Of a stretch of 64,000 nucleotides of DNA, positions 6,945-60,901 are shown piece after piece. Source of the DNA: Hydrolagus colliei (Eukaryota); NCBI GenBank assembly GCA_035084275.1, contig JAYJKW010000106.1, positions 806,001 through 870,000 on the forward strand. Direction: 5' to 3'. The translations under genes were made by a program, and so were the position numbers. The number at the start of each line of letters is the position of its first letter. Positions within the stretch are counted from its first letter, which is position 1. Below the pieces are notes generated by a model. The model had not been told where the DNA came from and did no database searches. It worked only from the letters and a program-made list of their open reading frames with translations.

Positions 6945-9458
6945 ATGGCAAATCTGATCATTTGGAGAATTGAAGACATTTACTACCCGATTCTCGCTGC
7001 TGTTGGAATTCCTGGCAAGTGATTTATCCACTTGATTATTTTAGGTGAGTTTGCACTAAAGTCTGTAACCTGACTCAGTTCAGCAATCTCACCTTTCAAT
7101 GAGCAAACGGTAGTTTATCTAATCCTTGAATTTCCCTGTTTGTCCCTTGAAATCTCCCTGCCCCTTTTCGTGATACTGACCGTTGACGATCAAATAAATT
7201 GTGAGGGCTTGAGTTCTTAACTAAGTGCGGTAGCGAGAATAAAAGCGTAGTAACAAATCTCCAGTTTCCTGCTTAAGTATTAGAGATTGTAGTGCGCCAT
7301 TCAAAAGAGAAAATAGATAAGGTGAACTTGATGGCATTTTGATTATGTAATTCTTTTTTGTTACTCCATACAATAATTATTTCACCATTTAGTAACTGTA
7401 TAGTGGTGGTTCGCTATTGTGAACATCTGACTACCGAATTTCCACACAACATCAAGTCGACTCGCTTTACAGTATATTCTGTGAAGAGATTTCAGACGAT
7501 AAGCAGACGATAAGATATTATATCTAACACAAGTTTCCAGACTAATCTCTATTATTCGCCGTTTACCGGCTGAATCGGGGAGGTGTGAGCTTTGGTTCCA
7601 TGAACGAACATTCGACTCCATCAAAAAACAAACAATCACCATTTGTGAAGCGCCTTTCACATGGGAGAGCGTCTGAACACTTACACACAGTGCTGGGTTG
7701 CAAAGAGGATGAATCTCTGTATGACGAATATTTATGTTCAAATTAAAGAATGCTGTGAATGTGGCTAATGGTAGAGAGATTGACTGATCCTCTGTGCAAA
7801 CCCAGCATTGTATGTCAGCACACAGTGAGGGGAGTGACCGGTGTTATCTCAGAAAGTTTGGGGCAGGACACGGCGAGGTATTTGCTCCATGTTAAGATGT
7901 CTTAAACAATAGACAATTTGCTGTATCAAACGCTAGGCATATGTGTTTATTAATTTTGCGTTTCTAAATGACCATTAAATGACCTCTCTCGGTTTATCTC
8001 AGTTTGAACGTATCTCTATTAATATGCCTACTTCTGTAAGTGAACGACGCATATTCTAAATGTGGCTGTATCTCTGCCAGCACCTCTCCCTTTCTCTCTG
8101 TTGGTATGTGTTTGTGTCTATTGTGATGTGTGTTTCTTTCTGAACATGAACGACAGTCTCTGTCTGTTACATTCGTTATCTGTGTTCTTGTCTTTCCCTT
8201 ACTGTGGCGTTTCTTCCGCATTTCGCTCTGTGTATGTTTGTGTTTGTTTATCTCTCCGACTATAGTGTATCCATCTCGCTCATTCTCTTTGTCTGTTTCT
8301 CTACACCACTCTCTCTCCAACGACCGCTCTCGCTCTCTCTCTCTTCCCCGCTCTCTCACTGTCGCTCAGTATATCTATCAATTTCTCCCCCCTCCCCCCC
8401 ACTCCCACCGTCCCACTACCCATTTTCTTTGTCACTTTTCGGTGGGCAGCCGGGTGGTGGACATCGAGACACGTTCAGCAAATTGTAATCTTTACCAATG
8501 AATATTTATGTCTGATCATTTCTTTCTCTTTATCTCTGTAGTCAACCTATTGGCGATTGTTGTCCTGGCTCGAGGGAGGTGCGGTCTCTCCAAGTGCATC
8601 TCCATGTATCTGTTGGCCATGTCAGTGGCTGATCTGACGGTGGTTACTTCCACGGTGATCTTTGCTGTCATTGTACCTATGTACTTCAGGAATCCGTTCG
8701 TGTTCATCACTCCCGTGTGCCGGGTGCTAATTATACTGGAATTTGCAACAAGGGAAACCTCTGTCTGGTTCACTATCGCTTTCACCTTTGATCGATATGT
8801 CGCCATCTGTTGGCAAAAACGAAAAGATAAATATTGCTCCGAAAAAACAGCTGCTGCCGTGATAGCGGGGCTGAGTGTTGTCTTCACTGTGAAAAACATT
8901 CCCTGGTATTTTGCATATGAATCCGAATTCACAATTGACAAGAAACCCTGGGGATGCATTCCTACACCAAACTTTTACACTTCACTCCCATGGATAGTGT
9001 TTGACTGGCTCGGCATCACTGTCACCCCTTTTCTCCCGTATGTTCTGATTTTGCTGCTCAACGCCCTGACTGTCAGCCACATACTGGTGGCCAGTCGAGC
9101 TCGCAGGAGATTGCGGGGACACAGTGATGGGGACAGAACTAGAGGTGAGAGAGACAGTGATCCAGAGATGAAAAACAGGAGGAAATCCATCGTTTTACTG
9201 TTTGCTGTTTCTGCCAATTTTATATTATTATGGATAGCATATATTCTGTTATCATTATACTGGAAGATTACACGCGACTATGTGTACTCGGGGTATAATG
9301 ATCCTAAGTATATTATCTATCGAACTGGCTTCATGTTGCAGATGTTGAGCTGCTGTACAAACACATTTATTTACGCTGTGACTCAGACTAAATTCAGAGA
9401 GGAGATTAAGAAAGTGCTGGCATTTCCTGTTACACTAATTGTGAGATTATTTCATTGA
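6945..9458 (+). CDS. GPR139/GPR142-like class A GPCR, gene 1 (2 exons, 328 aa)
   Basis: Exon 1 6945-7014 (MANLIIWRIEDIYYPILAAVGIP+G) with donor GCAAGT. Acceptor tctgtAG ends at 8541; exon 2 8542-9458 is in frame (VNLLAIVVL...). Seven TM segments, FDRY, NTFIY; resembles GPR139 (YY...GLP|ANIL, LEFSS..SIW.T...DRY.A.C). Confidence 0.92.
7688..7810. mobile_element. internally deleted MITE in the intron of GPCR gene 1
   Basis: Terminal inverted repeats cagtgctgggttgcaaagaggat / atcctctgtgcaaacccagcattg, with TA on the right flank. The longer copy is at 21464-21903. Confidence 0.55.
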
Positions 9459-9559
9459 CAAATTTTCCCACTGCTGTGTGTGTGTCTTTGTGACGCGATA
9501 GACACAGTGACTGGGTCCCTATGAGCCTACCCGTCCCATCATCATGTAGCACGTAATGT

Positions 9560-9860
9560 TGTCTTCTGGAGATCATCAAGTGAATAAAATCAATAATCAT
9601 GAATAAAAGTGCATCACAGAATATTCTGTGTAATGTATTGACTGTTAGTGTAGTTGTGTGCAAATCACAGCAGTGTTGCGTAACGTAGTGACTCACAAAC
9701 AGGTATGGATTCAAAATACCTATTTATAATTGTTTTTCTCGAGCGATTATCATGAATCGTGTGGCGTAAGGAAACTTGCCCAAAGTTGTACCATGTTCAG
9801 AATTGAACCCAGAACTCTCGCTTGTAAGTAGCGTGCTCTAACCACTGAGCTATAAGACAC
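9560..9860 (-). mobile_element. tRNA-headed SINE
   Basis: Minus-strand A box (TAGCTCAGTGGTTAGAGC) and B box (GGTTCAATTC) at ~9800-9855, with a degenerate body. Mirror copy at ~19430-19740. Confidence 0.7.
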
Positions 9861-10069
9861 TACACCTGGTTGTGTTTGTCAGTGCATGTGTCTCTGTTAG
9901 TGCTTGACTCTATGCCACTGCATGTGTCTGCGAAAGCAAAATAGCTGGAGAGACACAGATAGTGTTAGCACCACATGTATGTGAGCACGTAAACCTTTTT
10001 CCCAATGTATGTGTGTGTGAGAGAGAGAGCGAGAGAGAGAGAGGGACTGAGTGCTGTAATATATCTCGT

Positions 10070-10380
10070 TGCAGCGTCCTGTATCTCAGTTCTGGCACTC
10101 GCCATAAAAGCGTGAGACGTGTGTCCGAATCCAGGCAGGTTAGCTCGAAACCTTGGGAACGTTTCCTTACTGCATACGTCGAATTCTAATCCCTAAAAAA
10201 AAACTATAAGAAATTGTTCATTTCAATCAACGACTGTTTGTGGGGCACTGCTGTGCGCAATTGGATGTGCTGTATTGCTCACACATCTAACTTCAATTCA
10301 CTTTACGGTATATTGTTTGAAGCGGTTTGAGACACAGTTTAGTAAATTCCAACAGTGCTCTATCGAACGCAAGGATTAAT
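10070..10380 (+). mobile_element. tRNA-headed SINE with L2-type tail
   Basis: Colinear with the full-length SINE at 12055-12378. Mirror copy at ~18925-19225. Confidence 0.75.
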
Positions 10381-10489
10381 ATGAAGACGTAAAAGTTCGT
10401 TCAGAAGGAGCTAGTTAGACTAACACCGAAAGTAGAAACAGAATCTGGCAGTGGGAGACCGCATGTGGTTTGCTCAGTAAATTGGAGGC

Positions 10490-10790
10490 TTTGATTTGAC
10501 AATAAATATATTTTGCAAAGAACGCTTGCTCTGGGTTGAGTGTGATTTTGTGCGTGTAATACATTCGTTGTTTTGGGGGTTCGTATAATATACAACGAGG
10601 CGTCGATATCAGACAAGTCAACTCACTTCTTACGAATGGAAATCATTTAACCTGTTCGATACTATGACACTATCGTGTTCCCATTCACTCTGATTTTGTT
10701 GGCCAAACTTCTGACTGACAGCCACATTTTCGTGGCAGTAGAGCCCACAAATGATCGTGGGAGTGCGGAAAATAAGACGGGAATAAAGTT
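10490..10790 (+). pseudogene. decayed GPR139-like GPCR remnant (TM4-TM5)
   Basis: Translates with stops and frameshifts to SGLSVILCV*YIRCF, TSYEWKSFNLFDTMT and FPFTLILLAKLLTDSHIFVA. These match AGLSVVFTVKNIPWYF, TSLPWIVFDWLGITVT and LPYVLILLLNALTVSHILVA of gene 1. Confidence 0.75.
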
Positions 10791-11074
10791 TTGAGTGAGT
10801 GAATGTGTGTACAATTGACTGCCGCGTTTCACCCACACATTCCATCGTCCATTCGTGTTACAATATGTTCTTTGATGCGCTTAGAGACATTTTGAGGAAG
10901 TGGTATTGCGCTATATCGATTCTATGTATTAGTATCATTCATATTGTAAACAATTTACCCTTTCCATGGATAGGCCATAGTGCATTTCAGTTCACTGTTG
11001 CTCACGCAACCCTCTCCATGTCGAGGTATAACATTAACTCTTTCCTGATCCTTTGTAAATGAATTCTTAGTCTT

Positions 11075-12700
11075 CTCACTGGGGAACTATATAATTACTG
11101 AGTTCACAGTTTAATTTGCTTAGTGATGTACAAACGTATCACAACAACAAAATTACACTCGCATAGAGTTCATAGATTGAAGCCTTGAGTTACATGTGGA
11201 ATTATGACCTGATCGATTCTAAGCATTAGTATTATCAATAATATTGTCATTTTCCCCATTCCAAGAATGATACAAGTTACCTCTCGTCACTCCCTTCTTC
11301 ACACATCCCACCCCACATAAAGCGATCATTTGAACTCAGTCTTCAAAAATGGTTCGTAACCAACACACTGCGAAATTAATTAAATACTTGATAGACAGTT
11401 TTAATTTACTTGATGATGTACAAACGTATAAATCATATACATTGAACTCTTGAGCTACATGTGGAGTTAGTGATATTCAATAAACCATCATGACAACAAC
11501 TTTCTAACTGTATGTCGTCCACAAAATATGGAGTCAGTTCACTTTACAGTGTATCCTGTCAATCACTACTGATACTTTTCGAAGGCATGAGATGAGCAAC
11601 CACAACAATAATAAAATTACACTTGTATAACGCCTTTCACGTCAGGAGGACGTCCCAATGCGATGGCCAGTTACGGTCTCAAAGCTGAACTGAGGAGAGA
11701 TCGGGTGAGACGGAAGGCGGGGATTAATGATAAGAATCCTTGCATATATTATTGCATTTGATAACTTCTACATGTCTCCGAGCGCTTCACAGACTATGCT
11801 GTACTGTGCCGCAGGAAGGCGTGGAGATACTGGGTAAACATACAAGAACATAAGAATCAGGAGCAGAGGAAGAATATAACTCCATATGTCCCTTATTCGC
11901 CTAATTCCCATATCCTTTAATACCTTGATCGATAATAAATCTATCAATTCCAGGCTTTAATGGGTTCAAGCAATGAGCATCTATAGTTTTCGGGGAAGAG
12001 AATTCCATAAATTAACTTATATCTGAGTGAATAATTGTATTGTCAACTCAGTGCGACCTCCTGTAGCTCATTGGTTAGAACACTTGTCTTGCAAGCTGGG
12101 GAGACCAAGCTGGGGAGACCTGTGTTCGAATCCAGGCATGTCAGCGCGAAACCTTGGGCAGGTTTCCTTACTCCACACACACGCCTAATGATAATCACTC
12201 ACTAAAAAAACCACAATAATAAAATTGGTCATTTCAATCGACGACTATGTGTGCGCAATTCGCTGGCACGATTCGCCCACAAATATATAAAATAAATTCA
12301 CCTTGCAGTATATTCTGTGAAGCGCTTTGGAACGTTGATAAGATATGGAAAGCGCTATATCAAATGCAAGGATTATAAAGTGCTGACCCCAAATTTTAAG
12401 TCTTTGAACCTTGGTTATAGTTTCTCATTCTGCCATATTCAAGAGAATACAGGCCTAGTTTTAATAGACAAACCTGTCTTCACAGCCGAGCTCCTTTATC
12501 CCAGGAACAAACATAGGGGATGATTCGCTTGGGGAATTAATTAATTACTTAATTCAAAGTGTAAATTACTTGGTGATGTACCAACGTATAACAACAATAA
12601 AACTTTACTTGTATAGAGCTCATAGATTGAAGCCTTGAGTTACATGTGGAATTATGACTTGATCGATTCCAAGCATCATTATTATAACTAATATTACTAA
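11075..12700 (+). repeat. three dispersed direct copies of a ~100-170 bp unit (about 11075-11245, 11375-11470, 12530-12700)
   Basis: Shared core gtgatgtacaaacgtat...ttgagttacatgtggaattatga. All three copies are mirrored in the right arm. Confidence 0.75.
12055..12378 (+). mobile_element. full-length tRNA-headed SINE with Deu-like core and L2-derived tail
   Basis: A box TAGCTCATTGG, B box TGTTCGAATCC, core tgtgtgcgcaattcgctg, tail gtgaagcgctttgg...aaagcgctatatcaaatgcaag. Mirror copy at ~16935-17255. Confidence 0.85.
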
Positions 12701-12719
12701 TAGAGAATTAAATAAATAA

Positions 12720-13150
12720 ACTACCATCTGAGTATCAAAAAACAGGGGAAGGACTGAGCCCTAATTTGAAGACTGTGTTCATTTGTTATCATTTCTCCAA
12801 CCAGGGAAAATATTCTGTCACTGCCTACTCTGTCTTGCCCCTTAATTTTCTTATAGGCGACGATAAGATCCCCTATAATACTTCGATATTCTCGAGAACA
12901 TAGGCCTAGATGGCTCATCTTATCGTCATAGCTGAACCCCCTTTACCCATGAACCAAACTTGTTGGGCACCCACTTTAAGTGGAGTAATTCCTTTCATAA
13001 ATAATGAAGCCAAACCTGCACACAATATTCTAGGTGCGTTCTCAGGAAAGGCCTCTTCAGTTGCAGCAAGACTTCCCAACTCTTATATTCTAACGCTTTT
13101 GTAATAAACGCCAACATGCCTTTTGCACAAAATACAAAGATCTGTATTAT
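12720..13150 (-). mobile_element. CR1 LINE RT fragment, degenerate
   Basis: Minus-strand translation GDLIVAYKKIKGQDRV..RIFSLVGE matches CR1 GDLIEVYKIMRGFDRA..KLFPLVGE. Mirror copy at ~16190-16590 (+). Confidence 0.8.
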
Positions 13151-14304
13151 TCTGTGCACAGCAAAACTAAGATTTTCCTCTGCACCTAATTATTTCCCTT
13201 TCCCTTTCCTTCCACATATTTAATGGGGTTTGATACAAGATGGATAGCCAGCAGAACGATTATCCATTAGCCTCGCTTCCTCCCTTGCCTCCTCTAAGGC
13301 CACGAGGGAATGGTTTATTTGAAGGTGGAGTTGGGTTCAGGGAGTTCAGATGTTACCATTATCATTTGCTTGGCCGAAGACATGGCAATGATAAGTGAGG
13401 TGAGCTCTGCAGGAAGCAATATATAAATCGATGTTGTTGTTGTTGTTGTCAATGTCGGCAATGTAATCAACGTACGTGCAAAACAGCGGTGTCATCCCAA
13501 TGTGATGACTGTTCAAATACACGCCAACAAACCAAGAGAGAGAGAGAGAGAGACACAGAGAGAGACACACACACAGACACACATACCTCTGTTTACCAGC
13601 AGTCAGGAGGAAACCGCTTGTTGTTCGGTTAGCGGAACACTAGCCCCCAGCCCCCGCCCCCCCTCACCCCACCCCGCTCCTCCTTGGGTAATAATACCTA
13701 CAAAATAATAATATTTTTGTTCACTCAATCCACGACTGTTGGTTGAATGTCTCTGTGTGCGATTCATTGGCTGCCACTTTTCGCCCACAAAACACACAGT
13801 CACTACACTTTACAGTGTGTCCTGTGAAGCGCTTTGAGACGTCTGTCAAACTTGCAAAATGACAGGATGATGAAAAGGCAAAATTATTATTTTATTGTTC
13901 ATCATTAATACTATTATTGTTGAGTACAATAGTTTACAGTGAAGAGTTATTAATACAATGATTATTATTGATATGTATTAATTTATTAATCAGGAAGTAT
14001 TGGTGATAATTATTATCACTCATCAATCACCGACTTAATGGGTAGAATGATGTGAAGTTTTTGCTCTGGAGCCGGTGTCTAGGTGAGAGTCGCTTTCTGT
14101 GTCTGTCTGTGTCTGCTTGTCTCTCTCACACAGTATTTATACTCTCTCTCCCTCTGTCTCTCTCTCTCTCTCTCTGTCTCTGATGAAACTCTCTCTGCTG
14201 ATGTGTCCTGCTTCCCATTTGTCACTTTCAGAATATCTTGGGTTATGTTATTAGCTCTGGCCCTCCCCTTCTCTCCCTTCCTCCCTCCACCACTGCTATA
14301 CTAT

Positions 14305-14460
14305 GTGTAGAGACACAGTAAAGCTCCCTCTACACTGTGCGCCCATCCACACACCAGGTTAGCGTGAGTGACACAGTAAAGCTCCCTCTATACTGTGCCT
14401 CCGCCGACACTCCTAGGTCAGAGTTACAGACGCAGTAAAGCTCTATCTATGCTGTGCTGT
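14305..14460 (+). repeat. ~59-bp minisatellite, 3 copies, in the palindrome spacer
   Basis: acacagtaaagctccctctacactgtgc repeated at about 14313, 14371 and 14430. Confidence 0.8.
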
Positions 14461-15179
14461 CAGCTGTGGGTGTTAAAGCTGTAATGTGTTGTGTGGTCCA
14501 AGGTGGATCAACAGCAGAAACAGGAGAAAACGTTTCAAGCACTTGGTCCCAACATTGTCAATATTGACAATCTGTGCCTTACAGTCTCTGGGATACGGTA
14601 ACATGGGTATATCCCCCAGAGAGGGGGTGAGAGATGGGAGGGAGTACAATAAAAATAATAATCCGTCCATTTGATGAAGCGCTTTTGACGTCTGATCGAC
14701 ATCTTACAGCGCGTCATAAAATAAACCGTAAAGTGAATTGAAGATGTATTTGTGGGGGAAGCGTGGCAGCCAATTGCGCACAGTCATGTCCGGACAAGCA
14801 ATCGTGGATTAAAATGACCAATTATGTATTAGTGTGGGATATTTGTATTTGATAGCCTCTTCCTCTTTACATATTTGTAAAAGCTCTTGCAGTCTGTCTT
14901 TATATTCCTCGCTAGTTTGCCCTCATATTCAATTTTCTCCCTCTTAATCAATGTTAGCCTCTACTTTGTTGATCCCTAAAGCTCTTCCAATTCTCTGGTT
15001 TACTGCTTATCTTTGCTGTTTTATAGTTTTCACATTTGACTTTACACGTTCCCTAACTGCTCTAGTTAGCCACATTTGGACGAACTATACTGTGGCATTC
15101 TTATTCCTCAATGGAAAACGGAGGTAATATAAAGCTTGGCAGCAGGATAACCGTCGGAGTGGAATTAAGGAGGGCCTCG

Positions 15180-15460
15180 ATAACTCGATTTACAAGCGTG
15201 CCTGTGTGTGTATCCAGGCAGGTCAGGGCGAAAATTTGGCCAAGTTTACTTACACCACATGCCTAATAATAATCCCTCCAATACAAATAAGGCTAATTGG
15301 TCATTTGCATCCACGTTTGTTTGTGGGACACTGCTATGTGCAACTGGCAGCCGCACTTCGTGCAAAAATGTAGTCAATTCACTTTACAGTATATTCTGTG
15401 AAGCGCCTTGTGAGATCGATAATATACGAAAAGCGGTATATCAAAAGCAAAGACTTTAAT
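15180..15460 (+). mobile_element. SINE, same family as 12055-12378
   Basis: Core tgtttgtgggacactgctatgtgcaactggcagccgc and tail aagcggtatatcaaaagcaa. Confidence 0.75.
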
Positions 15461-18400
15461 GTGTTCAAAAGAAAAATATGTTCTTTGTTCTGTCGCTCAA
15501 TCTTCCTTCGGTAACGTAGAAGAGAAACGTGGACATGAGCAACTTAACCAGAGCTAGACACAGGAGAAGCTTGGTGGCGATTTGGTGGCGCTTGCCTGCT
15601 CTATGCAAACCGCCTTGAAATTTGCCTATAAACCGTATGGCCTCTACACGGCAAATACAATCCTGTGACATCTTTCCCACTGAACTCCTGGCAATGGGTG
15701 GGAAGTGGGGAGTAACTAGATCAGATCCGAAAGTTATACGGCAGAAGGTCAGCAAGTGATTGGAAATCTGGAAAACATCTTAGAGGAGTTGGTTTGTTGG
15801 CGTGTATTTGAACAGTTATCACGTTGGGATGACACCGCTGTTTTCCACGTACGTTGATTACATTGCCGACTTTGACAACAACAACAACTTCGAGTTATAT
15901 ATTGGCTCCTGCATAGCTCACATCACTGATCACTGCTCTCCTCATTGACCATGTCTTCGGCCAAGCAAATGATAATGGTAACATCTGAACTCCCTGAACC
16001 CAACTCCACCTTCAAATAAACCATTCTCTCATGGCCTTAGAGGAGGCAAGGGAGGAAGCGAGGCTAATGGATAATCGTTCTGCTGGCTATCCATCTTGGA
16101 TCAAACCCCATTAAATATGTGGAAGGAAAGGGAAAGGGAAATAATTAGGTGAATACAGAAGAATACAGATCTTTGTATTTTGTGCAAAAGGCATGTTGGC
16201 GTTTATTACAAAAGCGTTAGAATATAAGTGTTGGGAAGTCTTGCTGCAACTGAAGAGGCCTTTCCTGAGAACGCACCTAGAATATTGTGTGCAGGTTTGG
16301 CTTCCTTATTTATGAAAGGAATTACTCCCCTTAAAGTGGATGCACAACAAGTTTGGTTCATGGGAAAAGGGGGTTCAGCTGTGACGATAAGATGAGCCAT
16401 CTAGGCCTATGTTCTCGAGAATATCGAAGTATTATAGGGGAACTTATAGTCGCCTATAAGAAAATTAAGGGCTAGGACAGAGTAGGCAGTGGCAGAATAT
16501 TTTTCCTGGTTGGAGAAATGATAACAAATGGGCACAGTCTTCAAATTAGGGGACAGTCCTTCCGCTGTTGTTTGATACTCAGACGGTAGTTCATTTATTT
16601 AATTCTCTATTAATAATATTATTCATAATGATGATGCTTGGAATCGATCAAGTCATAATTCCACATGTAACTCAAGGCTTCAATCTATGAGCTCTATACA
16701 AGTAAAGTTTTATTGTTGTTATACGTTGGTACATCACCAAGTAATTTACACTTTGAATTAAGTAATTAATTAATTCCCCTAGGGAATCATCCCATATGTT
16801 TGTTCCTGGGATAAAGGAGCTCGGCTGTGAAGACAGGTTCGTCTATGAAAACTAGGCCTGCATTCTCTTGAATATGGCAAAATGAGAAACTATAACCAAG
16901 GGTCAAAGCCTTAATATTTGGGGTCAGCACTTTATAATCCTTGCGTTTGATATAGCGCTTTCCATATCTTATCAACGTTCCAAAGCGCTTCACAGAATAT
17001 ACTGCAAGGTGAATTTATTTTATATATTTGTGGGCGAATCGTGCCAGCGAATTGCGCACACAAAGTCGTCGATTGAAATGACCAATTTTATTATTGTGGT
17101 TTTTTTAGTGAGGGATTATCATTATGCGTGTGTGTGGAGTAAGGAAACGTGCCCAAGGTTTCGCCCTGACCTGCCTGGATTCGAACACAGGTCTCCCCAG
17201 CTTGGTCTCCCCAGTTTGCATGACAAGTGTTCTAACCACTGAGCTACAGGAGCTCGCACTGAGTTGACAATACAATTATTCACTCAGATATAGTTTAATT
17301 TATGGAATTGTCTTCCCCAAAAACTATAGATGCTCAGTGCTTCAACCCATTAAAGCCTGGGATTGATAGATTTGTTATCGATCAAGAGATTAAAAGATAT
17401 GGGAATAAGGCGGGACATGTGGAGATATATGCTTCCTCTGCTCCTGATTCTTATGTTCTTGTATGTTTACCCAGTATCTCCATGCGTTCCTGCAGCACAG
17501 GACAGCCTAGACTGTGAAGCGCTCGGAGACATGTAGAAGTTATCAAATGCAATAAAATATGCGTGGATTCTTATCATTAATCCCCGCCTTCCGTCTCACC
17601 TCATCTCTCCTCAGTTCAACTTTGAGACAGTAACTGGCCATCGCATTGGGACGTCCTCCAGAAGTGAAAGGCGTTATACAAGTGTAATTTTATTATTATT
17701 GTGGTTGCTCATCTCATGCCTTCGAAAAGTATCAGTAGTGATTGACAGGATACACTGAAAAGTGAACTCACTCCATATTGTGTGGACGACATGCAGTTAG
17801 AAAGTTGTTGTCATGATGGTTTATTGAATATCACTAACTCCACATGTAGCTCAAGTGTTCAATGTATATGCTTTATACGTTTCTGCATCATCAACTAAAT
17901 TAATACTGTCAATCAAGTATTTAATTAATTTCGCAGTGTGTTGGTTACGAACCATTTTTGACGACTGAGTTCAAATGATCGCTTTATGTGGGGTGGGATG
18001 TGTGAAGAAGAGTGTGACGAGAGGTAACTTGTTTATTCTTGGAATGGGGAAAATGACAATATTATTGATAATAATGCTTAGGATCGATCACGTCATAATT
18101 CGACATGTAACTCAAGGCTTCGATCTATGAACTCTATGCGAGTGTAATTTTGTTGTTGTGATATGTTTGTACATCACTAAGCAAATTAAACTGTGAACTC
18201 AGTAATTAATTAGTTCCCCAGTGAGTTGTAAAATCAGAATTATGTTACAAACTATAAGGAAAGAGTTAATGTTATAGATCGACATGGAGAGGGTTGTGTG
18301 AGGAACAGTGACCTGAAATGCACTATGGCTTATCCTTGGAGAGGGTAAATTGTTAACAACATGAATAATAGTAATACATAGAATCGATATAGAGCCGTAC

Positions 18401-18509
18401 CACTTCATCAAAATGTCTCAAAGCGCATCAAAGAATATATTGTAACACGAATGGACGATGGAATGTGTGGGTGAAACGCGGCAGGAAATTGTGCACACAT
18501 TCACTAACT

Positions 18510-18810
18510 CAAACCTTTATTCCCGTCTTATTTTCCGCACTCCCACCATCATTTGTGGGCTCTACTGCCACGAAAATGTGGCTGACGGTTAGACAGTTGG
18601 CCAGCAAAATCAGAATGAATGGGAGCCGCCGGAGTGTCATTATATCGAACAGGTTAAATGATTCCTATGCGTAAGAAATGAGGTGACTTGTGTTATATCA
18701 ACACCTTATTGTATTTTGTACAAACCCCCCCCCAAAACAGCGAATGTATTACACGCACAAAATCATATTCAAACCAGAGCAAGCGTTCTTTGTAAAATAT
18801 ATTTATTGTC
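18510..18810 (-). pseudogene. decayed GPR139-like GPCR remnant (mirror copy)
   Basis: Minus strand reads SYA*ESFNLFDIMTLRRLPFILILLANCLTVSHIFVA, a clear TM5 homolog with an in-frame stop. Confidence 0.78.
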
Positions 18811-19817
18811 AAATCAAAGCCTCCAATTCAATGAGCAAACTACATCCGGTCTCCCACTGCCAGATTCTGTGTCTACTTTCGGTGTTAGTCTAATTAGCTC
18901 ATTCTGAACGAATGTTTACGTCTTAATAATAATCTTTGCGTTTGATAGAGCACTTTGGGAATCTTCGAAACTGTGTCACAAACCGCTTCAAACAATATAC
19001 CGTGAAGTGAATTGAAGGTGGGCAATACAGGACATCCAATTGCGCACAGCAGTGCCCAACAAACCGTCGTTGATTGAAACGAACAATTTCTTATTGGGTT
19101 TTTTTAGGGATTAGGATTCGACGTATGCAGTAAGGAAACTTTCAAAAGGTTTCGCGCTAACCTGCCTGGATTCGGACACACGTCTCAAGCTTTTATGGCG
19201 AGTGCCAGAACTGAGATACTGGACTCTGTAAAGAGATATATTACAGCAATCAGTCCCTCTCTCTCTGTCTTTCTCTCACACACATACATGGAGAAAAAGG
19301 ATTACGCGCTCACATACATGTGGTGCTAACACTCTCTCTGTCTCTCCAGCTATTTTGCTTTCACAGACACATGCAGTGGCATAGAGTCAAGCACTAACAG
19401 AGACATATGCACTGACAAACACAACCAGGTGTAGTGTCTTATAGCTCAGTGGTTAGAGCACGCTCCTTACAAGCGAGACATCTGGGTTCAATTCTGGGCA
19501 GGGTTCAACTTTGGGCAAGTTTCCTGACACCACACGATTCATGATAATCGCTCGAGAAAAACAATTATAAATAGGTATTTTGAATCCATACCTGTTTGTG
19601 AGTCACTACGGTACGCAACACTGCTGTGCTTTGCACACAACTACACAGTCAATACATTACACAGAATATTCTGTGATGCAGTTTTATTCATGATTATTGA
19701 TTTTATTCACTTGATGATCTCCAGAAGACAACATTAAGTGCTACTTGATGAAGGGACGGGCAGGCTGCTAGGGACCCCATCACTGTGTCTATCGCGTCAC
19801 AAAGACACAAACATTTG

Positions 19818-22613
19818 TCAATCAAATAATCTCACAATTAGAGCGACAGGAAATGCCAGCCCTTTCTTAGTCTCCTCTCTGAATTTAGTCTGAGTCACAG
19901 CGTAAATAAATGTGTTTGTACAGCAGCTCAAGAACTGCAACATGAAGCCAGTTCGCCAGATAATATATTTAGGATCATTAGACCCCGAGAACCAAAGGTC
20001 GTTTGTAATCTTCCAGTATAGGAAATTTAGAGTAAATGTCATCCATAATAATATAAAATTGGCAGAAACAGCAAACAGTAAAACGATGGATTTCCTCCTG
20101 TTTTTCATCTCTGGATCACTGTCTCTCTCACCTCTAGTTCTGTCCCCATCACTGTGTCCCCGCAATCTCCTGCGGGCTCGACTGACCACCAGTATGTGTC
20201 TGACAGTCAGGGCGTTGAGCAGCAAAATCAGAACATACGGGAGAAAAGGGGTTACAGTGACGCTGAGCCAGTCAAACACTGTCCATGGGAGTGAAATGTA
20301 ATAGTTTGGTATATGAATGCATCCCCAGGGTGTCTTGTCAATTGTGATTTCGGATTCAAATGCAAAATACCAGGGAATGTTTTTCAAAGTGAAGACAACA
20401 CTCAGCCCCGCTATCACTGCAGATGCTGTTTTTTCGGTGCAATATTTATCTTTGAGTTTTTGGCAACAGATGGCGACATATCGATCAAAGGTGAAAGCGA
20501 TAGTGAGCCAGACAGAGCATTCCCTTGTTGAAAATTCCAGTATACTTAGCACCCGGCACACGGGAGTGATGAGCACGAACGGATTCCTGAAGTACACAGG
20601 AACAATGTACGAAAAAATCACCGTGACAATAACCACCGTCAGATCAGCCACTGACATGGCCAACAGATACATGGAGATGCACTTGGAGAGACCGCACCTC
20701 CCTCGAGCCAGTACAACAATCGCCAATAGGTTGACTACAGAGACAAAGAGAAAGAAAAGATCAGACATAAATATTCATTGGTAAAGATTACAATTTGCTG
20801 AACGTGTCTCGATGTCCACCACCCGGCTGCCCACCGAAAAGTGCCAACGAAAGTGGGTAGTGGGACGGTGGGAGTGGGGGGGAGAGGGGAGAAAGTGATA
20901 GATATACTGAGCGTCAGTGAGAGAGCGGGGAAGAGAGAGAGAGAGAGAGAGAGTGGTCGTTGGAGAGAGAGTTGGGTAGAGAAACAGACAAAGAGAATGA
21001 GCGAGTTGGATACACTAAAGTGGGATAGATAAACATACACAAGCATACACACCGGGACATGCGGAAGAATCGCCACAGGAGGCGAAAGACACAAGAACAC
21101 AGATAATGAAAGTCACAGACAGAGACTGTCGCTCATGTTCAGAGAGAAACACACATAACAGTAGATGCAAAGACACACCGACAGACAGAAAGGGAGATGT
21201 GCTGGCAGATTCAGAAAATGAGTCGTTCAGTTCAAAAGTAGGCATACTAATACAGATACTCACAAACTGAGATACACCGAGATACATAAACGTCATTGAG
21301 AAACGGAAAATAATTAAATAAATAAATAATTAAATAATCTAGCGTTTGATACAGCAAATTGTCTATTTTTCAAGACATCTCAAAATGCAGCAAGTATCTC
21401 GCCGTGTCCTGCACAAACTTTCTGAGATAACACCGGTCACCCACCTCACTGTGTGCTTACGTACAATGCTGTGTTTGCACAGAGGATCAATCAATCGTTC
21501 CTCTACCAATTGCCGCATTCAATGAATTATTTAGTTTGAACAAAATAAGTCATCAGAGGCAATCGAATACATACATTTGACTCAACTGACCCCACTGCTG
21601 CATTTAAATACAATGCAGTGTTTGCATTAAACCTGTCTCATCCTTTGAGAGATTTGGACGACCACAGTTGGCGTTGTATCAAAAGCACGAATCGTTGCAA
21701 TTGAGTCAATGATCTTCAACCAATATCGGTCTGTCTGTACAACGTGCCAATGTAAAATGCCTTTGCAAACAGTACCTTTGGTTAGAGGAGTCAATTGGAT
21801 ATATTCGATTGTATCTGATAATATTTATTTGTTGAAATTAAAGAATTATTTGAATGCGGCAAATGGGAGAGGGTAGATTGATACTGTTTGCTACCCAGCA
21901 TCGTATGGAAATACACAAACGCTCCCCTGTTTCAAAGGTGATTGTTTATTTGTTGATGCAGTTTCAATTGCGAATATGGAACCAAAGCTCACAACTCCCT
22001 GATTCAGCCGGTAAACTGCGACCAATAGAGATTAGTCTGGAAACCTGCATTTGATATAACATCGTATAATATCTTTATGTCTCCTCGAATCGCTTCACGG
22101 AATATACTGTAAAGCGAATCGACTTCATTAGGTGTGGAAATTCGGGAGTCAGATGTTCACAACAGCCAACGACCACTATAAGGTAACTAAATGGCTAAAT
22201 GTTTTTTATATTGCATCGTTTAAAAATTTGCATAATCAAAATTCCATCGGCTTCACATGATCTATTTTCTCCTTTGAATGACTCCCTGCAATCTCTAATA
22301 CCTAAGCAGGCAAACTGGAGATTTGTTACTAAGGTTTTATTCTTGCTACCGCACGTAGTTAAGAACTCACGTCCTCACAATTTGTTTGATCATCAGTGGT
22401 CATTATCCTGAAATAGGAAACAGGGAATTTCACGGATTACACAAAGCACAATTTGCCAATTGAAAGGTGAGATTGCTAAACTGAGTCAGGCTACAAACTT
22501 TACTGTAGACTAACCTAAATACTGAATTCGATAAATCACTTGCCAGGAATTCCAACAGCAACGAGAATCGGGAAGTAAATGTCTTCAATTCTCCACATTA
22601 TCGGATAGGCCAT
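19818..22613 (-). CDS. GPR139/GPR142-like class A GPCR, gene 2 (2 exons, 328 aa)
   Basis: Exon 1 22613-22544 (MAYPIMWRIEDIYFPILVAVGIP+G) with donor GCAAGT. Exon 2 20734-19818 follows ctgtAG. 44 of 305 exon-2 residues differ from gene 1 (manual count). Confidence 0.92.
21464..21903. mobile_element. TA-flanked MITE (Tc1/mariner-type ends), ~440 bp
   Basis: TA|caatgctgtgtttgcacagaggatcaatc ... gattgatactgtttgctacccagcatcg|TA; imperfect TIRs of about 85 bp. Confidence 0.6.
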
Positions 22614-26132: not shown

Positions 26133-26139
26133 CGTGTGT

Positions 26140-27056
26140 TCATAGAATCATAGAATTTTACGGCACAAAAGGAGGCCATTCGGCCCATCTAGTCTGTGCC
26201 GGCTCTTTGAAAAGAGCGATTCAATCCCACTGTCCTGCCCGCTCCCCATAGCCTAATAGACCAGTTCTCCCTAAATAAAGATCTAATTCCCTTTTAAAAG
26301 TTGTTATCGAATCAGCCTCCACCACCTTTTCAGGCAATGCATTCCAGAATCGAACAACTCGCTGAGTGAAAAAAATTCTCCTCAGCTCCCCTCTACTGCG
26401 CCTTGAAACTATTTTAAATCTGTGACCACGAGTCACAGATTCACCCACGAGTGGAAATAGTTTTTCTCTATTTGCCCTGTCGAAACCCCTCATGATCTTA
26501 TAAACCTCTATTAGGTCTCCCCTCAATCTTCTCTGCTCCAGAGAGAATAACACTAGCCTATCTAGCCTCTCCTCATAGCTGAAGTCCCTCAATCCTGGCA
26601 CCATCCTAGTAAATCTTCGTTGTACCCTTTCCAAAGCCTTCACATCCTTTCTGTAGTGTGGTGACCAGAATTGAACACAGTATTCCAGCTGAGGCCTCAC
26701 CAAAGTCCTATAGAGGTTAGTCAGCACTTCCTGACTTTTGTACTCTATACCCCTATTTATAAAGCCTAGTATCCCATATGCCTTCTTAACAGCCTTGTCC
26801 ACCTGTCCTGCCACCTTCAACGAGTCACTAACACAAATCCCCAGGTCGCTCTGTTCCTTTACACCATTTAAAATTGTACTATCTAGCCTACATTGCCTCC
26901 CTTCATTTCTTCTCCCAAAATGCATCACCTCACACTTCTCTGCATTAAACTTCATCTGCCATGTGTCTGCCCACTTTACCAATTTGTCTATATCCTCTTG
27001 CAGATGGCTACTATCCTCCTCACTGTTTACTATTCTCCCTAACTTAGTGTCATCTG
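26140..27056 (-). mobile_element. young 5'-truncated CR1 LINE
   Basis: Uninterrupted 253-aa RT C-terminal ORF at 26221-26982 (WQMKFNAEKCEVMHFG...RPQLEYCVQFWSP), truncated at the DDTK motif. The 3' tail is (TTCTATGA)n at ~26140-26156. Confidence 0.95.
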
Positions 27057-44818: not shown

Positions 44819-47800
44819 TTAGTTAACCAATTTCAGGATCAGTCTGAATGGATATTTCACCAGATGTTTCACTTCCGCTCTGAAGTTGGATTGTGTGACT
44901 GCATAAATGACGGTATTTGTGCAGCAACTTGAAAGCTTAAGCATGGCTGCCACTTCCACGAACACAATGAATGTGTTTTCATTGTCGAAAATATTCGCTG
45001 AAATTCGGTAAAGTATGAATTCGATAACGTACATCAGCCACAACATTATGAAGCTTCCCGATATGGTGAAGAGCAAAACGATGGATTTCTTACGATTTTG
45101 CATTTCTGCGTCATTGCAATTGTTACTTTTCTGGCTCAGTAGGTTTCTGCGGATTCTGATGGCCGCTAAAATGTGTCCAACGGTCACCACGTTCATCAGC
45201 AAAATCAGAAAGAATGGAGCGAATGGGGTTGTTATTATGTCAAACCATTGAAACACAATCCATCCCAGAGAGGTGTAGAAAGCTGGTTTGTTACCGCAAT
45301 ATGCAGGCCCGTTGTCCCATATAACCCAAGGCTCAAATTTGAAGTACCAGGGAACGCTGATGAAACAGCTCAGGGCAGAGATCACTCCTATAACCACGGC
45401 TGCTGTTCTCGCAGTGCAATAAATTGTTTTCAATTTCGGACAACATATAGCTACTAGGCGGTCAAAGGTGAAAGCCACTGTGAACCAGACTGAAAGGTGT
45501 GTCACGGCTGACATCAACACAAATCTGAGTGCACACACGGGAATGGTGTCCAGAAATATGATACTGCAACAAGCAAAATAGATCTGGTTGAATATCACAT
45601 CGCTGATGGTGACCAGAAGATCACCCAATGCCATGGACACCAGGTAGCGTGTGGTACATTTAGAGAGACCACACCTTCCACGGGACAGGACCACAATGGC
45701 CAAAATGTTCGCTGGAAGACAATGAAGAACAAGCACACAAATGGACTATTGAGTTGCGTAAGTTAGATTATAATAAAAATAAATAAACTTTGCGTTTGAT
45801 GTAACGCTTTTCACATCTACGAGAGGTCTCAGAGGAATTCACGGAATGTACAGTTGAGTTAGTTGGCTACATATATGTGAACGAAAATATTGTGGTTGTT
45901 TTTGGACAGATTCATATTAGGCGTGGGGAGCAAATTTGCTCTGGGTTTTGCACTTGACCTGCCAGGATTCGAACACAGGTCTCACGAATGTCTGTCTCGT
46001 GCTCCCATCACTGAGATACATCACTCCATATAGTTAATGGCATTTTTGCTCAAACAGCAGTTTCTGTTGGGAAGGTGAGTCTGGCAATTTTCATAGATCA
46101 GGCTTCTGAGTCACTGGATTCAAGCGGACACATGCCAGGAGATCGACGCACACACTAAGCTGATGTAAGTTGCAGCGCTGCAGATACAATCAACTTAAAG
46201 CAAGGCAATTCAGAGTGAGATGATCAGGAGCTGGATGAGCGCAAATTTCTGGATGCTAAATGATGACAAGACAGAGGCCATACTCTTTAGCTCTGGACAA
46301 CGTTTTCATTCGTATAGTTCTCACATTCTCCACCTTCCTGGTCTGCACCTAAAACACTCCGAAATTGCCATGCAAACTTGGGGTCAGGTTCGACCCCCAA
46401 CTCTCCTTCCTCCTCCACATCTGGTCCCTCACCATCACCGCTTTCTGCCACCTCCGACGGATCGCCCGCCTCCTGAAATACCTCACCTCAAAAGCCGCTG
46501 AAAACTTAATCCATGGCTTTGTCACCTCTCGGCTGCAATATTACAACTCCCTTCTCGCCGGTCTCCCCGCCATCACAAACCACAAAATCCAGCTCATTCA
46601 AAACTGCCGCCCGCATACTCGCCCGTACCAAACTTCTCTCCCCCATCACCCCAGTCTTGCAGACTTCACGGGCTCACCATCCGAAGAGGATAGACTTCAA
46701 GATCCTCACACTTGTTTTCACGTTCCTCCACTCCTCTGCACCCCCTGCCTCTCTGATCTCCTCTCCCCCAAAACCAGCACGCGCTGCCTTCGCTCCGCCA
46801 GATCTGGCGTCCTCTATTTCCCAAAATCGTCCGCTCCACCCTCGGCGGCCATGTCTTCAGCCACTACGACCCGAGGCTCTGGAATTTCCTTCTTCACTCC
46901 CTTCGCATTGCAACTCTCTTCTCAGGTTTACGTCACAGTTTAAGATCTTTTTCTTCGACCGCTCCTTTGTTCTCCTTTCTGCCCCTGCCCCTGGCTCGGT
47001 CCTGGGATCCCCTACTGTGAAGCGCTCTGAGACGCCGCCTGGCGTGGAGGGCGCTATATAAGTCGAAGTTGTTGTTGTTCATTACGGAGTTCGGAAGGCG
47101 TGCAGGAGATCATATTGGTAAATTTTGGTTTGTTCAGACATGGCCAGTAATTTGAAGTCTATCTCTGGATATTTAAGATGATGCTGCAATATTCCACAGA
47201 ATTATTGTGAAAAGATTCAAAATACTTTAACCTTGTTCCTTTTCTGAATGCTACCATTTTGATAGAGCGAAACTGCATAACATATATCCAATCGAATTAG
47301 CGGACATAAATGACGAAATAAAGTTTGGGATTTTCATGGCTTGATTTTTAAAAAATGTTGTCAAACAACTCATCTACAACACGGACAATCAGTATTCAAA
47401 TAATCGTGATTATCCAGTGTTTTCTGATTGGAATCCACAGCTCAAAGGCGTTACTGCATTCCTCAAGAAGCTTGAATCTAACTTTTCATGGAACATAGCG
47501 ATTTCAATATCCTCAAACTCAACTTCAAATCATTCCCTGCCCCGGTAGCTGTCTACCCCTCAACCTGCTCACAACTCTGGTCCTTCCAGCCATCCAGCCA
47601 AGTTGACGAGTTGACGCTCGTCAACTTGAGCCTCAACGCATCCACGATACATTCTTTAGAACCGTTTAGAAATCGGACATTAAATTATTGCTTTTTGACA
47701 GTGACCACGGTCGCTCTGATTCATCTACTCATCACTAACATGTTTGACTGCCTGATTCAGAAGTCATATCTCGCCTCTGATTCAAAAGGTTGTGGGCTCG

Positions 47801-49092
47801 ATTCTCACATTGCGACTCGGAAACAGATGGTCTGCCACATCGCTCCAGGGAAGGGGTGATGAGCTGCTTTGTTTTAGACATCACGCTGCCCAACAGGTGA
47901 AAGGGTAAACCCAACCCCCTTCTGTCCGTTCAAGTGGACGTTAGTGATCCCACGGATATATTCCAAATTAGAAAAATGTTTCTACCGCCACCTGTTGGTC
48001 ATTGTTTGTTCGCAACCGATCACAGCATTTCGCCCACAGCATATGCAGTCACTATCCTTCACAGTGGATACTGTGAAGAAGCAGTTCATTTGAAAATGGG
48101 GTTCGTACCTTCAGTGTCACACAGTACAGACACAGTGTAGAAAGCAATATGAATTTGACTTTATAAAGCGCCGTTATGTGGGGTAGCATCCTGGATTGCT
48201 TAAGAGTGGCAGAGTCTGACAACCAACCAAAGAATATGGCGAGGATGGGAACTGCAATCTAAAATGAATACCGTAGTCCAGCCGAGGAGTGACAAAGACA
48301 TGGAATAGTACCTAGGTTGCTGTTAGGTGTGCATGGAGGCAGGCGATGGGGTGGAGGTGGAAAGAAATGGGCTTGTCATTCCAACGGATGTGTGGCAGAA
48401 GTAAAGTTGTGCTTTGTCCTGACTCTGAAGTCGAACGCTTCAAACCTACAGTAACGGAGACATTGACGAGAGCCTTATTCTCCTCTAGCTGCATATCGAT
48501 GTTCATCTACTGGAAATTATTTCTCACAAGAGGTATGATACCTATCAAAAAAACTACAGGACACCAAACCCTGGGAGCTGCAGCTGGAGTTAGTGAAGTA
48601 GATTGGTTTTCTATTTGATACACGTCAAACAACGAGATAAAAATACAAATGGTACCTGTAACTCAGTGGTTAGAGCCCTCGCCTTACATGCATGAGACCC
48701 GTGTTAGAATCCAGGCAGATCAGGGCCAAACCTTGGGCAAGTCTCCTTTCTCCACAAACCTAACAATAAACCCTCCCCACAAAAGCACGATAATAAATTT
48801 GGTCATTTCAATCCACGACTGCTTGTGGAAACGCTGCTGTGCGGAATTCGCTGCCGCGTTTCACCCACAAATCTACAGTCAATTACTTTGCAATATATTC
48901 TGTGAAGCACTTTGAGATGTCGATAAAATGTGAAAAGCGCTATATCGAATGCGAGGATTCTTGTTATGGATTATTATTCTAAACTGTCTGTGATTAATTA
49001 CCTGAAATGCCTAAAGTTGCAAGAATGGGATAATAAACTAATTCGGCCTGAAAAAATATTTTAGCTGCAGAATAGTCGAAAATCCTCAACAT
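44819..49092 (-). CDS. GPR139/GPR142-like class A GPCR, gene 3 (2 exons, 327 aa)
   Basis: Exon 1 49092-49002 (MLRIFDYSAAKIFFQAELVYYPILATLGIS+G) with donor GTAATT. Exon 2 45711-44819 follows cttccAG (ANILAIVVLSRG...). FDRL and NTVIY motifs. Confidence 0.9.
46200..47080 (+). mobile_element. L2 LINE 3' fragment in the intron of GPCR gene 3
   Basis: IRSWMSANFWMLNDDKTEAILF...FVTSRLQYYNSLLAGLP; (TTG)n tail near 47070. Confidence 0.9.
47770..48080 (+). mobile_element. old Deu-domain SINE (SacSINE1/AmnSINE1-like)
   Basis: Degenerate tRNA head (ctcgcctctgattcaaaaggttgtgggctcgattctcac) and a Deu-like motif caagtggacgttagtgatcccacggatatattc. Confidence 0.5.
48650..48965 (+). mobile_element. full-length tRNA-headed SINE
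   Basis: TGTAACTCAGTGGTTAGAGC head, core and tail colinear with 12055-12378. Confidence 0.85.
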
Positions 49093-49160: not shown

Positions 49161-49168
49161 TATTTATA
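49161..49168 (-). promoter_or_regulatory. TATA box of GPCR gene 3
   Basis: Minus-strand TATAAATA about 70 nt upstream of the ATG at 49092. Confidence 0.55.
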
Positions 49169-50830: not shown

Positions 50831-50939
50831 TCTCATGAAAGACACCAAACATAAGAGACACAAGTTTCGTCAGTGATGATGTGTATTGAGTATTCACTGC
50901 ATGTTTTTGCATCACGCAGACCTGGGACGTAAGTAATTC

Positions 50940-58546: not shown

Positions 58547-58554
58547 CATAAATA
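58547..58554 (+). promoter_or_regulatory. TATA-like box of GPCR gene 4
   Basis: CATAAATA about 70 nt upstream of the ATG at 58619. Confidence 0.45.
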
Positions 58555-58618
58555 GGGCTGACTTTGTCAACATCACTTCAGAGGAGAAAACTTAGTGGGT
58601 GTCATCAGCACAACGAAA

Positions 58619-60901
58619 ATGACACATCCTTTGATTAGAATATTGGAACAGATAGAACTGATATACTATCCAACTATTGCAGCTATTGGTGTTCTTGGTA
58701 AGTCCGCATAGCCTGATAGTTCACGTAAGTCAACGCTTCAATACATGACTGCCTTTGATATATATCTTATATTTGCACTCTCCTCATGGTTTTTATGCGA
58801 TCTTGTTTTGTATATATTGGTTACTTAGATAGTCTCATAGATGGCTACACAGAGTCGAGTGCGCTCAATGAAAACATTACATTATTTGGTATGCCAAACT
58901 CGCAAAAAAAGTGTTTTTTTCAATTAATTGATTCCTTAGTATCACAGAAAAAACAGCATTAGATGATACAAGAGCATCGAAGAGAGTTTATGCAACAAGA
59001 ACAACAGCTTGCAGTTACACTGCCCATCTGACGCGGAGCATCTCAGAGCACTTAAGATCACCAGCTCCAATGTTTTTTAATAACTGTTCAAAATGTTACA
59101 CAAAACAGTCTTGGAATATGTAAATATGATGTACTTCTCACGAGTAACATTTATGCTTTATCTCCACCTAGCTTTATTTGTGCGTTAATGCTAAATTCTC
59201 TTACTCTGCATAAGTGGTTCACTTTTTATTAAAAAAACTATTAAATGTATGATTGTTATCGGCAATATTTGCAATAAATATCCCAAATAGATAATAACAA
59301 ACATGAGATTTCATGTTTTGCTTTAACATATTCTAGTCTACTCAAAGTATTTCACAGAATATATTTTAAATGGGGTTGGCTGTATACTAGTAGTTGGAAC
59401 ACGGGAGCAGTTGTTGAATGAGTGGCAATTTTTTATTCTATCATTATTTATTTAGATATACTCCTTGAAGCACTTTAACTTGTCAAGGTTTGGATCAATT
59501 TATTCTAAATTGTGAAGCTATGTTTCCGTAAAATTCTCTGACAAAACTGCAAACCTGACATCGAAATTATAATTGATTTGAACAACTTCGAGGCACATGG
59601 ATGCGCCAGACGTCCTACTTAGGGTAAATCCAGCTCCCAAATCTCCATTCACTAAACGTCTCATTGACTAATGTGCGTTCAAATTATTCAAACAATACGA
59701 GACACCAACGTACATGTTTCAAAAGAAAATCTAGTAACTATGTAACAAAAAGTGAACTGCAGAAGGTGGATTCACGTTTGCTTCACCAAGTGAGATCTAA
59801 CCAATCCCTCCTTACTCCCTGATGCCAATAGGATTAGTTTCCGAATGCTCAAATACCTTCGGAATCTCCTGCGTTACCTGGCACCTGGTTGTGGTGTTCT
59901 GACACCGACAAATTCTCCAGTGCGTTACCCTGGGCGAGGGAGGCGATTAAACTGCAGTTGTTGATTTTGTAAGATACTCGAATATTTCTTGTGTTTTGTT
60001 TGCAGTTAACCTGGTGACGATTGTGATCCTCTGGCGAGGAAAGTGCGGACTCTCCACGTGCATCACTCGCTACCTGGTGGGCATGGCGGGGGCAGATCTG
60101 ACGGTGGTGATATTTGATGTGATACTGAACCGCGTAGGTGATCAGTATCTCCCAATATTCAATGTTCTTCTTCTCACCCCGATCTGCCTTCTCCACGAGT
60201 TGCTGCTGAATGTGACCTCAGCGTGTTCTGTCTGGTTCACAGTGGCTTTCACCTTTGACCGACATGTCGCCATTTGTCACCACAAATTGAAATCAACATA
60301 TTGCACCCAGAGATCGGCGGCTGTGGTTCTGGGAACCATCTCTGTGCTGATTTGTGCAATATACAGTCCTCTGTGCCTGGAGTTTGAACCGCTCTTCATC
60401 ATTAACAACAAACCTTGGCTTTGTGTCGTTAAAATAAGTTATTATTTTTCAATGAAATGGACAATATTTAAGATATTTCTATATTTATTAACGCCAAGCC
60501 TCCCATTTGTCATCGTTTTGCTGCTCAATGCTCTGACAGTCAGACACATTGTGGTCAGCAGTCGGGCCCGCAGAAGACTCCGAGCCCATAGCCCTGGGCA
60601 GAATCACATTGATCCAGAGATGGAGAGTCGGAGAAAATCCATTGTTTTACTATTTGTTGTATCTGGGAGTTTTGTACTATTGTGGGTGACATACGTAGCC
60701 ACAAATCTTAATGATATAATTATGTATGTTTTAGATATAGACAAGAGACGCGGCGAACTTATACATGTGGGAGATATATTTCGACTTTTCAGTTGTTCCA
60801 CAAATACGTGTGTTTATGCTTTGACACAATCTAAATTCAGAGAACAGTTGAAAAATATGGTGACTTACCCGTTTCGTAAAATTGTTAAGTTAGTTTGGTG
60901 A
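58619..60901 (+). CDS. GPR139/GPR142-like class A GPCR, gene 4 (2 exons, 324 aa)
   Basis: Exon 1 58619-58697 (MTHPLIRILEQIELIYYPTIAAIGVL+G) with donor GTAAGT. Exon 2 60006-60901 follows tttgcAG (VNLVTIVILWRG...). FDRH and NTCVY motifs. Confidence 0.92.

Follow-up and report, generated by a model that had tools for sequence, protein, structure and literature searches.

The receptor locus

A stretch of 64,000 nucleotides of Hydrolagus colliei (contig JAYJKW010000106.1, positions 806,001 to 870,000; hereafter the window) holds four receptor genes, g1 to g4, of a large and diversified family of class A G-protein coupled receptors (GPCRs). Six-frame translation of the window yields four long receptor frames, each with a short first exon upstream. 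The gene models are spliced in silico, read from DNA alone, and predict proteins of 328, 328, 327 and 324 amino acids (g1 to g4), each interrupted by nothing but its single terminal stop. An earlier note on this DNA had claimed four intact paralogs, correctly, and its limits are exact: the g1 ATG is at 6945 and the g4 stop ends at 60901.

All four genes have two exons. The exon-2 frames score above the Pfam 7tm_1 cut-off in every case, and the proteins carry the class A residues N1.50, D2.50, P5.50, W6.48 and N7.49/Y7.53 together with a DRY-type motif. A model of g1 exon 2 has the class A fold with seven helices (predicted local distance difference test score, pLDDT, 89.9). The N-terminus is very short, as had been noted, with 24, 24, 31 and 27 residues ahead of N1.50, and one phase-1 intron interrupts each gene at the same place in the first transmembrane helix (TM1), in the codon one residue before N1.50. 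This common site is occupied by GC-AG introns in g1 (1527 nt; 7015-8541, + strand) and g2 (1809 nt; 22543-20735, - strand) and by GT-AG introns in g3 (3290 nt) and g4 (1308 nt). The g1 and g2 proteins are 85% identical; every other pair is 45-47% identical.

The TATA-like box that had been placed 70-90 nt before each ATG is convincing for g3 and g4 and loose for g1 and g2; candidate words lie at 72-92 nt in all four genes. TATAAAT (g3) and CATAAAT (g4) match a strict TATA pattern, which occurs by chance in ~2% of 31-nt windows; TTTAAAT (g1) and TTTAAGT (g2) match a loosened pattern only, and these two are not independent of one another. No tandem array with a 26-bp period is present in the 1.5 kb ahead of any of the four ATGs (among 66 tandem-repeat entries), and the 600 nt upstream of g1, g3 and g4 have no 8-mer in common.

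Local duplication and loss

g1 and g2 stand tail to tail inside one inverted duplication of 8-9 kb (Table 1), so that the locus contains three old lineages and not four. An assembly or haplotype artefact as the source of the pair was considered and rejected, because the two arms run in opposite directions and have diverged by 5-15%, according to the segment compared. Contigs from one public sequencing run cover all 30 bins of 5000-24900 and include several variants of the g1/g2 exons, but contig depth does not measure copy number. Between the arms lies ~2.25 kb of unduplicated spacer (13535-15789), which begins at an AG microsatellite and contains a 58-bp tandem repeat. Of two remnants that had been reported, one is a genuine relic of a family member, but the pair amounts to mirror copies of a single TM5-region fragment within the duplication. 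Judged from its sequence, then, the locus has undergone one recent duplication and one loss in addition to its three old lineages.

Table 1. Coordinates of the receptor genes, the duplication and its remnants (positions in the window)
Feature	Position	Strand	Remarks
Inverted duplication, left arm	5205..13535	+	contains g1; 3' flank differs at 257/4008 aligned bases
g1 TATA-like word	6853..6859	+	loose match; 92 nt before ATG
g1 exon 1	6945..7014	+	23 codons + 1 nt; GC donor
g1 exon 2	8542..9458	+	remainder of TM1 through stop; AATAAA at 125 and 144 nt past it
Degenerate TM5-region fragment	10561..10737	+	mirror of the 18566-18709 remnant; profile E 0.08, not significant alone
Inverted duplication, right arm	15789..24608	-	contains g2
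Remnant of family member	18566..18709	-	end of extracellular loop 2 (ECL2) and TM5; family profile E 2.8e-8
g2 exon 2	19818..20734	-	Pfam 7tm_1
g2 exon 1	22544..22613	-	GC donor
g2 TATA-like word	22699..22705	-	loose match
g3 exon 2	44819..45711	-	Pfam 7tm_1
g3 exon 1	49002..49092	-	30 codons + 1 nt; GT donor
g3 TATA box-like word	49162..49168	-	76 nt before ATG
g4 TATA-like word	58547..58553	+	72 nt before ATG
g4 exon 1	58619..58697	+	26 codons + 1 nt; GT donor
g4 exon 2	60006..60901	+	Pfam 7tm_1

A family expanded across the cartilaginous fishes

Searching with g1 exon 2 finds 1793 clusters (90% identity) at E<=1e-10 among 5050 candidates, and the best 120 of these 1793 constitute the paralog set used below. 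At least 119 of the 120 come from sharks, rays and chimaeras. The closest are from Callorhinchus, at up to 65% identity. Most of the 120 bear the label 'probable G-protein coupled receptor 139'; that is, the proteins of the expansion are already in the databases, under an automatic name. The horn shark provides 47 of the 120, which fall into at least 46 distinct groups at 95% core identity and have a median likeness of 60% (46 is a lower bound, among the matches listed); the contigs that carry them have 10 different lengths. With g4 as query, 98 of the 50%-identity representatives match at E<=1e-30, and at least 16 of the 17 that were looked up belong to cartilaginous fishes. The intracellular motifs RGxCGLSxC and EMxxRxKSIVLLF, which the earlier note had singled out, are both present in all four window proteins and recur in 99/120 and 90/120 relatives, respectively.

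In trees, g1 and g2 cluster with Callorhinchus genes (support 99.9/100), and g3 and g4 cluster with elasmobranch paralogs, apart from g1/g2, which implies that diversification started before the chimaera-elasmobranch split. The description 'lineage-specific' thus fails in its narrow sense: the family covers chimaeras, sharks and rays, and the three lineages of the window are not grouped together. The description 'birth-and-death family' stands, given the size of the family, the inverted duplication and the remnant; its members have an inner face that is conserved under an outer face that varies. A handful of copies under uniform purifying selection, the outcome that would have spoken against it, is not what is seen; the horn shark has its at least 46 paralogs, with hypervariable pockets.

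The open literature that was searched (subscription journals lie mostly outside it) contains no account of this expansion in cartilaginous fishes. There is no GPR139 entry in the 12 (of 24) supplementary files of PMC8455134 that were searched or in one short file of PMC10529500, and no GPCR or olfactory term in PMC12952989.

Relation to GPR139, GPR142 and two conserved lineages

These genes had been called GPR139-like. They are related to GPR139 and GPR142, with human GPR139 the nearest solved receptor, but orthology with it does not hold. Among solved structures, g1 matches human GPR139 best (E 2.9e-8), and a 56-sequence family profile gives this receptor E 1.2e-22 as against 7.2e-15 for the next receptor, in a library made up of solved structures only. 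Like GPR139, for which PMC8807744 raises the same oddity, the family has no proline at 7.50 (T in 120/120 paralogs). Fold comparison could not tell class A receptors apart: GPR139 ranks 33 of the 50 shown, and is 21% identical to the g1 model in the fold alignment. Orthology with GPR139 or GPR142 was rejected on the modest E value against g1, on the number of paralogs in one shark and on the loss of the arginine at 6x51 (below). Relatives within the family reach E ~1e-95 to 1e-122, by which measure GPR139 is distant; the expansion also differs from GPR139/142 in mostly lacking a basic residue at 6.51, in lacking P6.50, in having C3.25 and in its many copies.

The closest relatives of the expansion are two conserved genes, here lineages A and B, among whose listed matches there is no mammal or bird; human GPR139 is the best solved match of both. 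Lineage A accounts for 21 of 25 matches, one gene for each of 20 amphibian species and one for a sturgeon; the other 4 are members of the expansion, and no teleost or amniote is among the 25. Its pocket is nearly invariant, with F3.33, K6.51 and N7.39, residues identical or similar to those of GPR139. Lineage B, found mostly as one gene per species, is known here from sharks, ray-finned fishes, the coelacanth, amphibians and reptiles, and includes no mammal or bird among the best 120 of 145 matches. It keeps R6.51, but S or C replaces W6.48. Two lineage B entries are annotated as TMEM183A isoforms, which suggests that lineage B neighbours TMEM183A.

Trees were built from the expansion, lineages A and B and 6 invertebrate sequences; no GPR139 or GPR142 ortholog is among them. 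The expansion and the two conserved lineages form one clade against the invertebrate sequences (support 99.4/100). The expansion is 28-31% identical to lineages A and B and 22-31% identical to the invertebrate receptors, and its monophyly has moderate support (89.6/74). Lineage A is its putative sister, with support 93.8/95 (IQ-TREE) or 0.75 (FastTree); the approximately unbiased (AU) test narrowly rejects grouping B with the expansion (p 0.049) and does not reject grouping A with B (p 0.11).

Both conserved lineages have the short N-terminus (median residues before N1.50: 25 in A, 27 in B), and in lineage B the open-frame records, which run through intron-like sequence as far as the same TM1 codon, indicate the same intron site. 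Since low-copy relatives have them too, these features are ancestral, and cannot be read, as the short N-terminus had been, as signs of a chemoreceptor. What sets lineages A and B apart from the expansion is low copy number, a fixed pocket and K or R at 6.51.

GPR210A and GPR210B have been named as fish and coelacanth relatives of GPR139/142 in PMC6504862, which covers no shark, and PMC5207463 lists an 'Orphan 139-like'; neither source, in its available parts, describes a shark expansion. Non-mammalian orphans of the GPR210A/B type, which lineages A and B may represent here, have the same short N-terminus as the window genes. The next relatives, outside the vertebrates, are invertebrate receptors of FMRFamide, MIP/sex-peptide and Srw type, which differ by their low identity (above) and by falling outside the clade of A, B and the expansion. 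Srw-like receptor expansions in nematodes and molluscs are candidate chemoreceptors. FMRFamide and MIP/sex-peptide receptor types have been reported to be of common origin with GPR139/142 (PMC8514136).

Sequence comparison thus indicates a class A multigene family that arose from a GPR139/142-related gene, underwent its expansion in the ancestor of cartilaginous fishes, and still turns over by local duplication and loss.

A variable pocket over a constant signalling face

Variability was compared between 25 pocket positions (chosen by generic numbering, in part from PMC8807744) and 128 intracellular positions; residue and entropy analyses of lineage B use the first 53 of its 120 matches. Among the 120 paralogs, mean entropy is 1.92 bits in the pocket against 0.75 bits on the intracellular face. 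Among orthologs the relation is reversed, with 0.09 against 0.62 bits for the 21 of lineage A and 0.56 against 0.98 bits for the 53 of lineage B. (A depth-matched control of 59 non-pocket positions gives the same picture: relative to these, pocket variability is higher among paralogs, p 0.006-0.05, and lower among orthologs, p<=0.0004.) At 9 key positions the 47 horn-shark paralogs have 40 different residue sets, as against 2 in the 21 lineage A sequences. The claim of divergent extracellular parts over a conserved intracellular face is borne out by this contrast and by the divergence of g1 from g2 (below). The entropy contrast is the strongest evidence that the copies probably bind different ligands and share a signalling face.

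That the ligands are aromatic L-amino acids, as for GPR139 and GPR142, with different copies tuned to different amino acids, is very improbable. R244 of GPR139 (6x51) docks the carboxyl of L-Trp and L-Phe; it is special to GPR139/142, its positive charge is needed for activation, and only lysine substitutes for it, in part (PMC8807744). The aligned residue is basic in all 74 of the conserved orthologs (K in 21/21 of lineage A, R in 53/53 of lineage B), but Y, F, Y and Y in g1 to g4; it is basic in 1/120 paralogs and in 3/43 relatives. Amino-acid sensing, to which the earlier note had pointed, would by the GPR139 mechanism thus find the required residue missing from 4/4 window genes and 119/120 relatives. 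In addition, the H187 position is occupied by G, S, D and L, and the N271 position by F, F, A and D. What speaks for such sensing is the profile match to human GPR139 and the retention of E3.32 and F3.33 in g1/g2 and of W6.48 in all four. A basic residue elsewhere might substitute, such as R3.36 of g1 and g2 or the K or R that g3 and g4 have at 7.42. Y and F are the common class A residues at 6.51, so that the expansion may have reverted to them or may have kept an older condition. Taken together, the sequences support a diversified sensing repertoire and not amino-acid sensing of the GPR139 type.

Selection on the duplicated pair

The overall dN/dS (ratio of nonsynonymous to synonymous divergence) of g1/g2 is ~1.2 (0.085/0.072), and the nonsynonymous changes are unevenly placed: their proportion (pN) is 0.133 on the outer face and 0.028 on the inner (p 2e-6). 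The outside value exceeds divergence of the 3' flank (0.064; p 3e-5) and the synonymous proportion (pS) of the whole gene (p 0.018; pocket alone, p 0.005), while the intracellular value lies below the flank rate (p 0.01). These figures support purifying selection on the inside face of the pair. Positive selection on the outside, from one pair, is suggested but not established.

The dN/dS value, together with a within-region test for positive selection that is not significant, would suit drift: copies thrown up by duplication-prone DNA, an outer face relaxed for ligand binding, and most copies redundant or silent. Drift of this kind is nonetheless improbable, if somewhat less so than amino-acid sensing. 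None of the four genes is broken, and each has its splice sites and a TATA-like word; the inside face of g1/g2 has changed less than the flank; and the inner motifs are identical in paralogs that are merely 45-47% identical overall. Plain relaxation, moreover, does not predict a pocket more variable than depth-matched non-pocket positions.

Probable use of the family

We infer the tissue, ligands and G protein of the family as follows. The intracellular face, kept across copies, would engage probably one G-protein pathway. The residues lining the pocket vary, and each copy would probably bind different ligands. The repertoire would then serve for external chemical cues, with sparse expression in chemosensory cells of the nose, the taste buds, or the skin and gill (as solitary chemosensory cells). 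External chemosensation is the most likely use of the family; we put its probability at about one half. Coupling to Gq or Gi/o is plausible by analogy: GPR139 signals through both (PMC8807744), and Go and TRPC2 mark the olfactory neurons of the catshark (PMC10116579).

The known chemoreceptor families OR, TAAR, V1R/ORA, V2R/OlfC and T2R are clustered multigene families with remnants, a variable pocket and a constant inner face. The window genes resemble them in having clustered paralogs, a remnant and a hypervariable pocket over a conserved signalling face, and differ from them in the coding intron in TM1, in having no N-terminal glycosylation sequon (0/4 proteins) and in their separate origin, within a peptide-receptor clade. 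In a Pfam scan of the window frames, no OR, TAAR, V1R, V2R or T2R profile matches at E<=0.001; only 7tm_1 and, weakly, Srx/Srw do. Cartilaginous fishes have on average 43.8 (20-62) known olfactory receptor genes, the smallest number of any vertebrate class (PMC10869828), and large olfactory organs (PMC10116579).

Several points weigh against external chemosensation. A variable pocket suits immune or somatosensory repertoires equally well, and the 120 paralogs, as the top matches to g1, are a non-random sample. For the g1/g2 pair, extracellular pN (0.133) is not above extracellular pS (0.098; p 0.49), and intron divergence is 0.154; divergence this patchy means that gene conversion could mimic the excess on the outside, leaving positive selection there no more than suggestive. 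Catshark OR, TAAR and ORA genes are mostly expressed most highly outside the nose (PMC11979771), so likeness to a chemoreceptor does not by itself make a gene olfactory in these animals. Finally, V2R/OlfC genes already supply the sparse olfactory pattern (PMC10116579).

Mammalian MRGPRs and formyl-peptide receptors (FPRs) are class A orphans that have expanded in clusters and whose outer faces evolve fast. The family may be a sentinel repertoire comparable with these, acting in leukocytes, mast-like cells or skin sensory neurons on peptides or small molecules derived from microbes, parasites or damage. We consider this possible but unlikely, though the best placed of the alternatives to external chemosensation. 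It predicts the same signature of pocket and inner face. MAS1 and its relatives are reportedly missing from cartilaginous fishes (PMC8455134), which might leave a sentinel niche open; in the catshark, several OR genes peak in expression in the spleen or other organs (PMC11979771); and the clade at large consists of peptide receptors, of FMRFamide and MIP/sex-peptide types (PMC8514136). On the other hand, there is no immune gene within the window, which besides the receptors shows just a C2H2 zinc-finger array, and no MRGPR or FPR is among the 31 solved-structure matches at E<=1e-12, so that the likeness is one of analogy only.

Other features of the window

The C2H2 zinc-finger array lies at 35003-35920 (+ strand) and has an 84-bp period. 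Its frame ends at 35731 and the repeat goes on, which suggests that the array is frameshifted or mis-assembled. Further upstream, a tandem array at 30713-31046, of ~51/98-bp units, has 7 sites matching a pattern that we take to be RFX X-box-like, of which there are 13 matches on both strands of the window, against 0.8 expected. Each site in the array is preceded by a TGTCAAT-like word, presumably TALE-factor-like. A GC-rich stretch that includes a splice donor near 31100 follows directly, and the array may serve the zinc-finger gene as its promoter; N runs totalling 504 bases (~31291-31800) separate this candidate promoter from the zinc-finger exon.

Fragments at 26224-27105 (- strand), 435-1073, 27877-28590, 39742-40353 and 46353-46940 presumably resemble the 3' ends of reverse-transcriptase frames of long interspersed nuclear elements (LINEs), with no Pfam match for the one that was scanned. 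A dispersed repeat of 250-300 bp, like a short interspersed nuclear element (SINE), is present in many copies.

Significance

A relative paucity of GPCRs has been noted in cartilaginous fishes (PMC8455134). The best 120 matches include no fewer than 46 members of this family from one shark, hidden under the name 'probable GPR139'. Should the family be sensory, the puzzle of keen smell despite few receptors would become directly testable with catshark RNA-seq that already exists, and sparse sensory expression would make it a new vertebrate chemoreceptor family. An immune or cutaneous role would provide a parallel to the MRGPR and FPR repertoires in the oldest jawed lineage. In either case, the amphibian and fish relatives that have the GPR139-type basic residue offer a route to the ancestral ligand.

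A bolder reading, which we regard as tentative, and well short of even odds, is that the family is an extra olfactory or taste receptor family, independently drawn over 400 million years ago from the GPR139/peptide-receptor clade, that would outnumber all known chemoreceptors of cartilaginous fishes and be expressed as one or a few receptors per sensory neuron. If so, the view that the smell repertoire of sharks is the smallest among vertebrates would be a product of searching for the six known families only.

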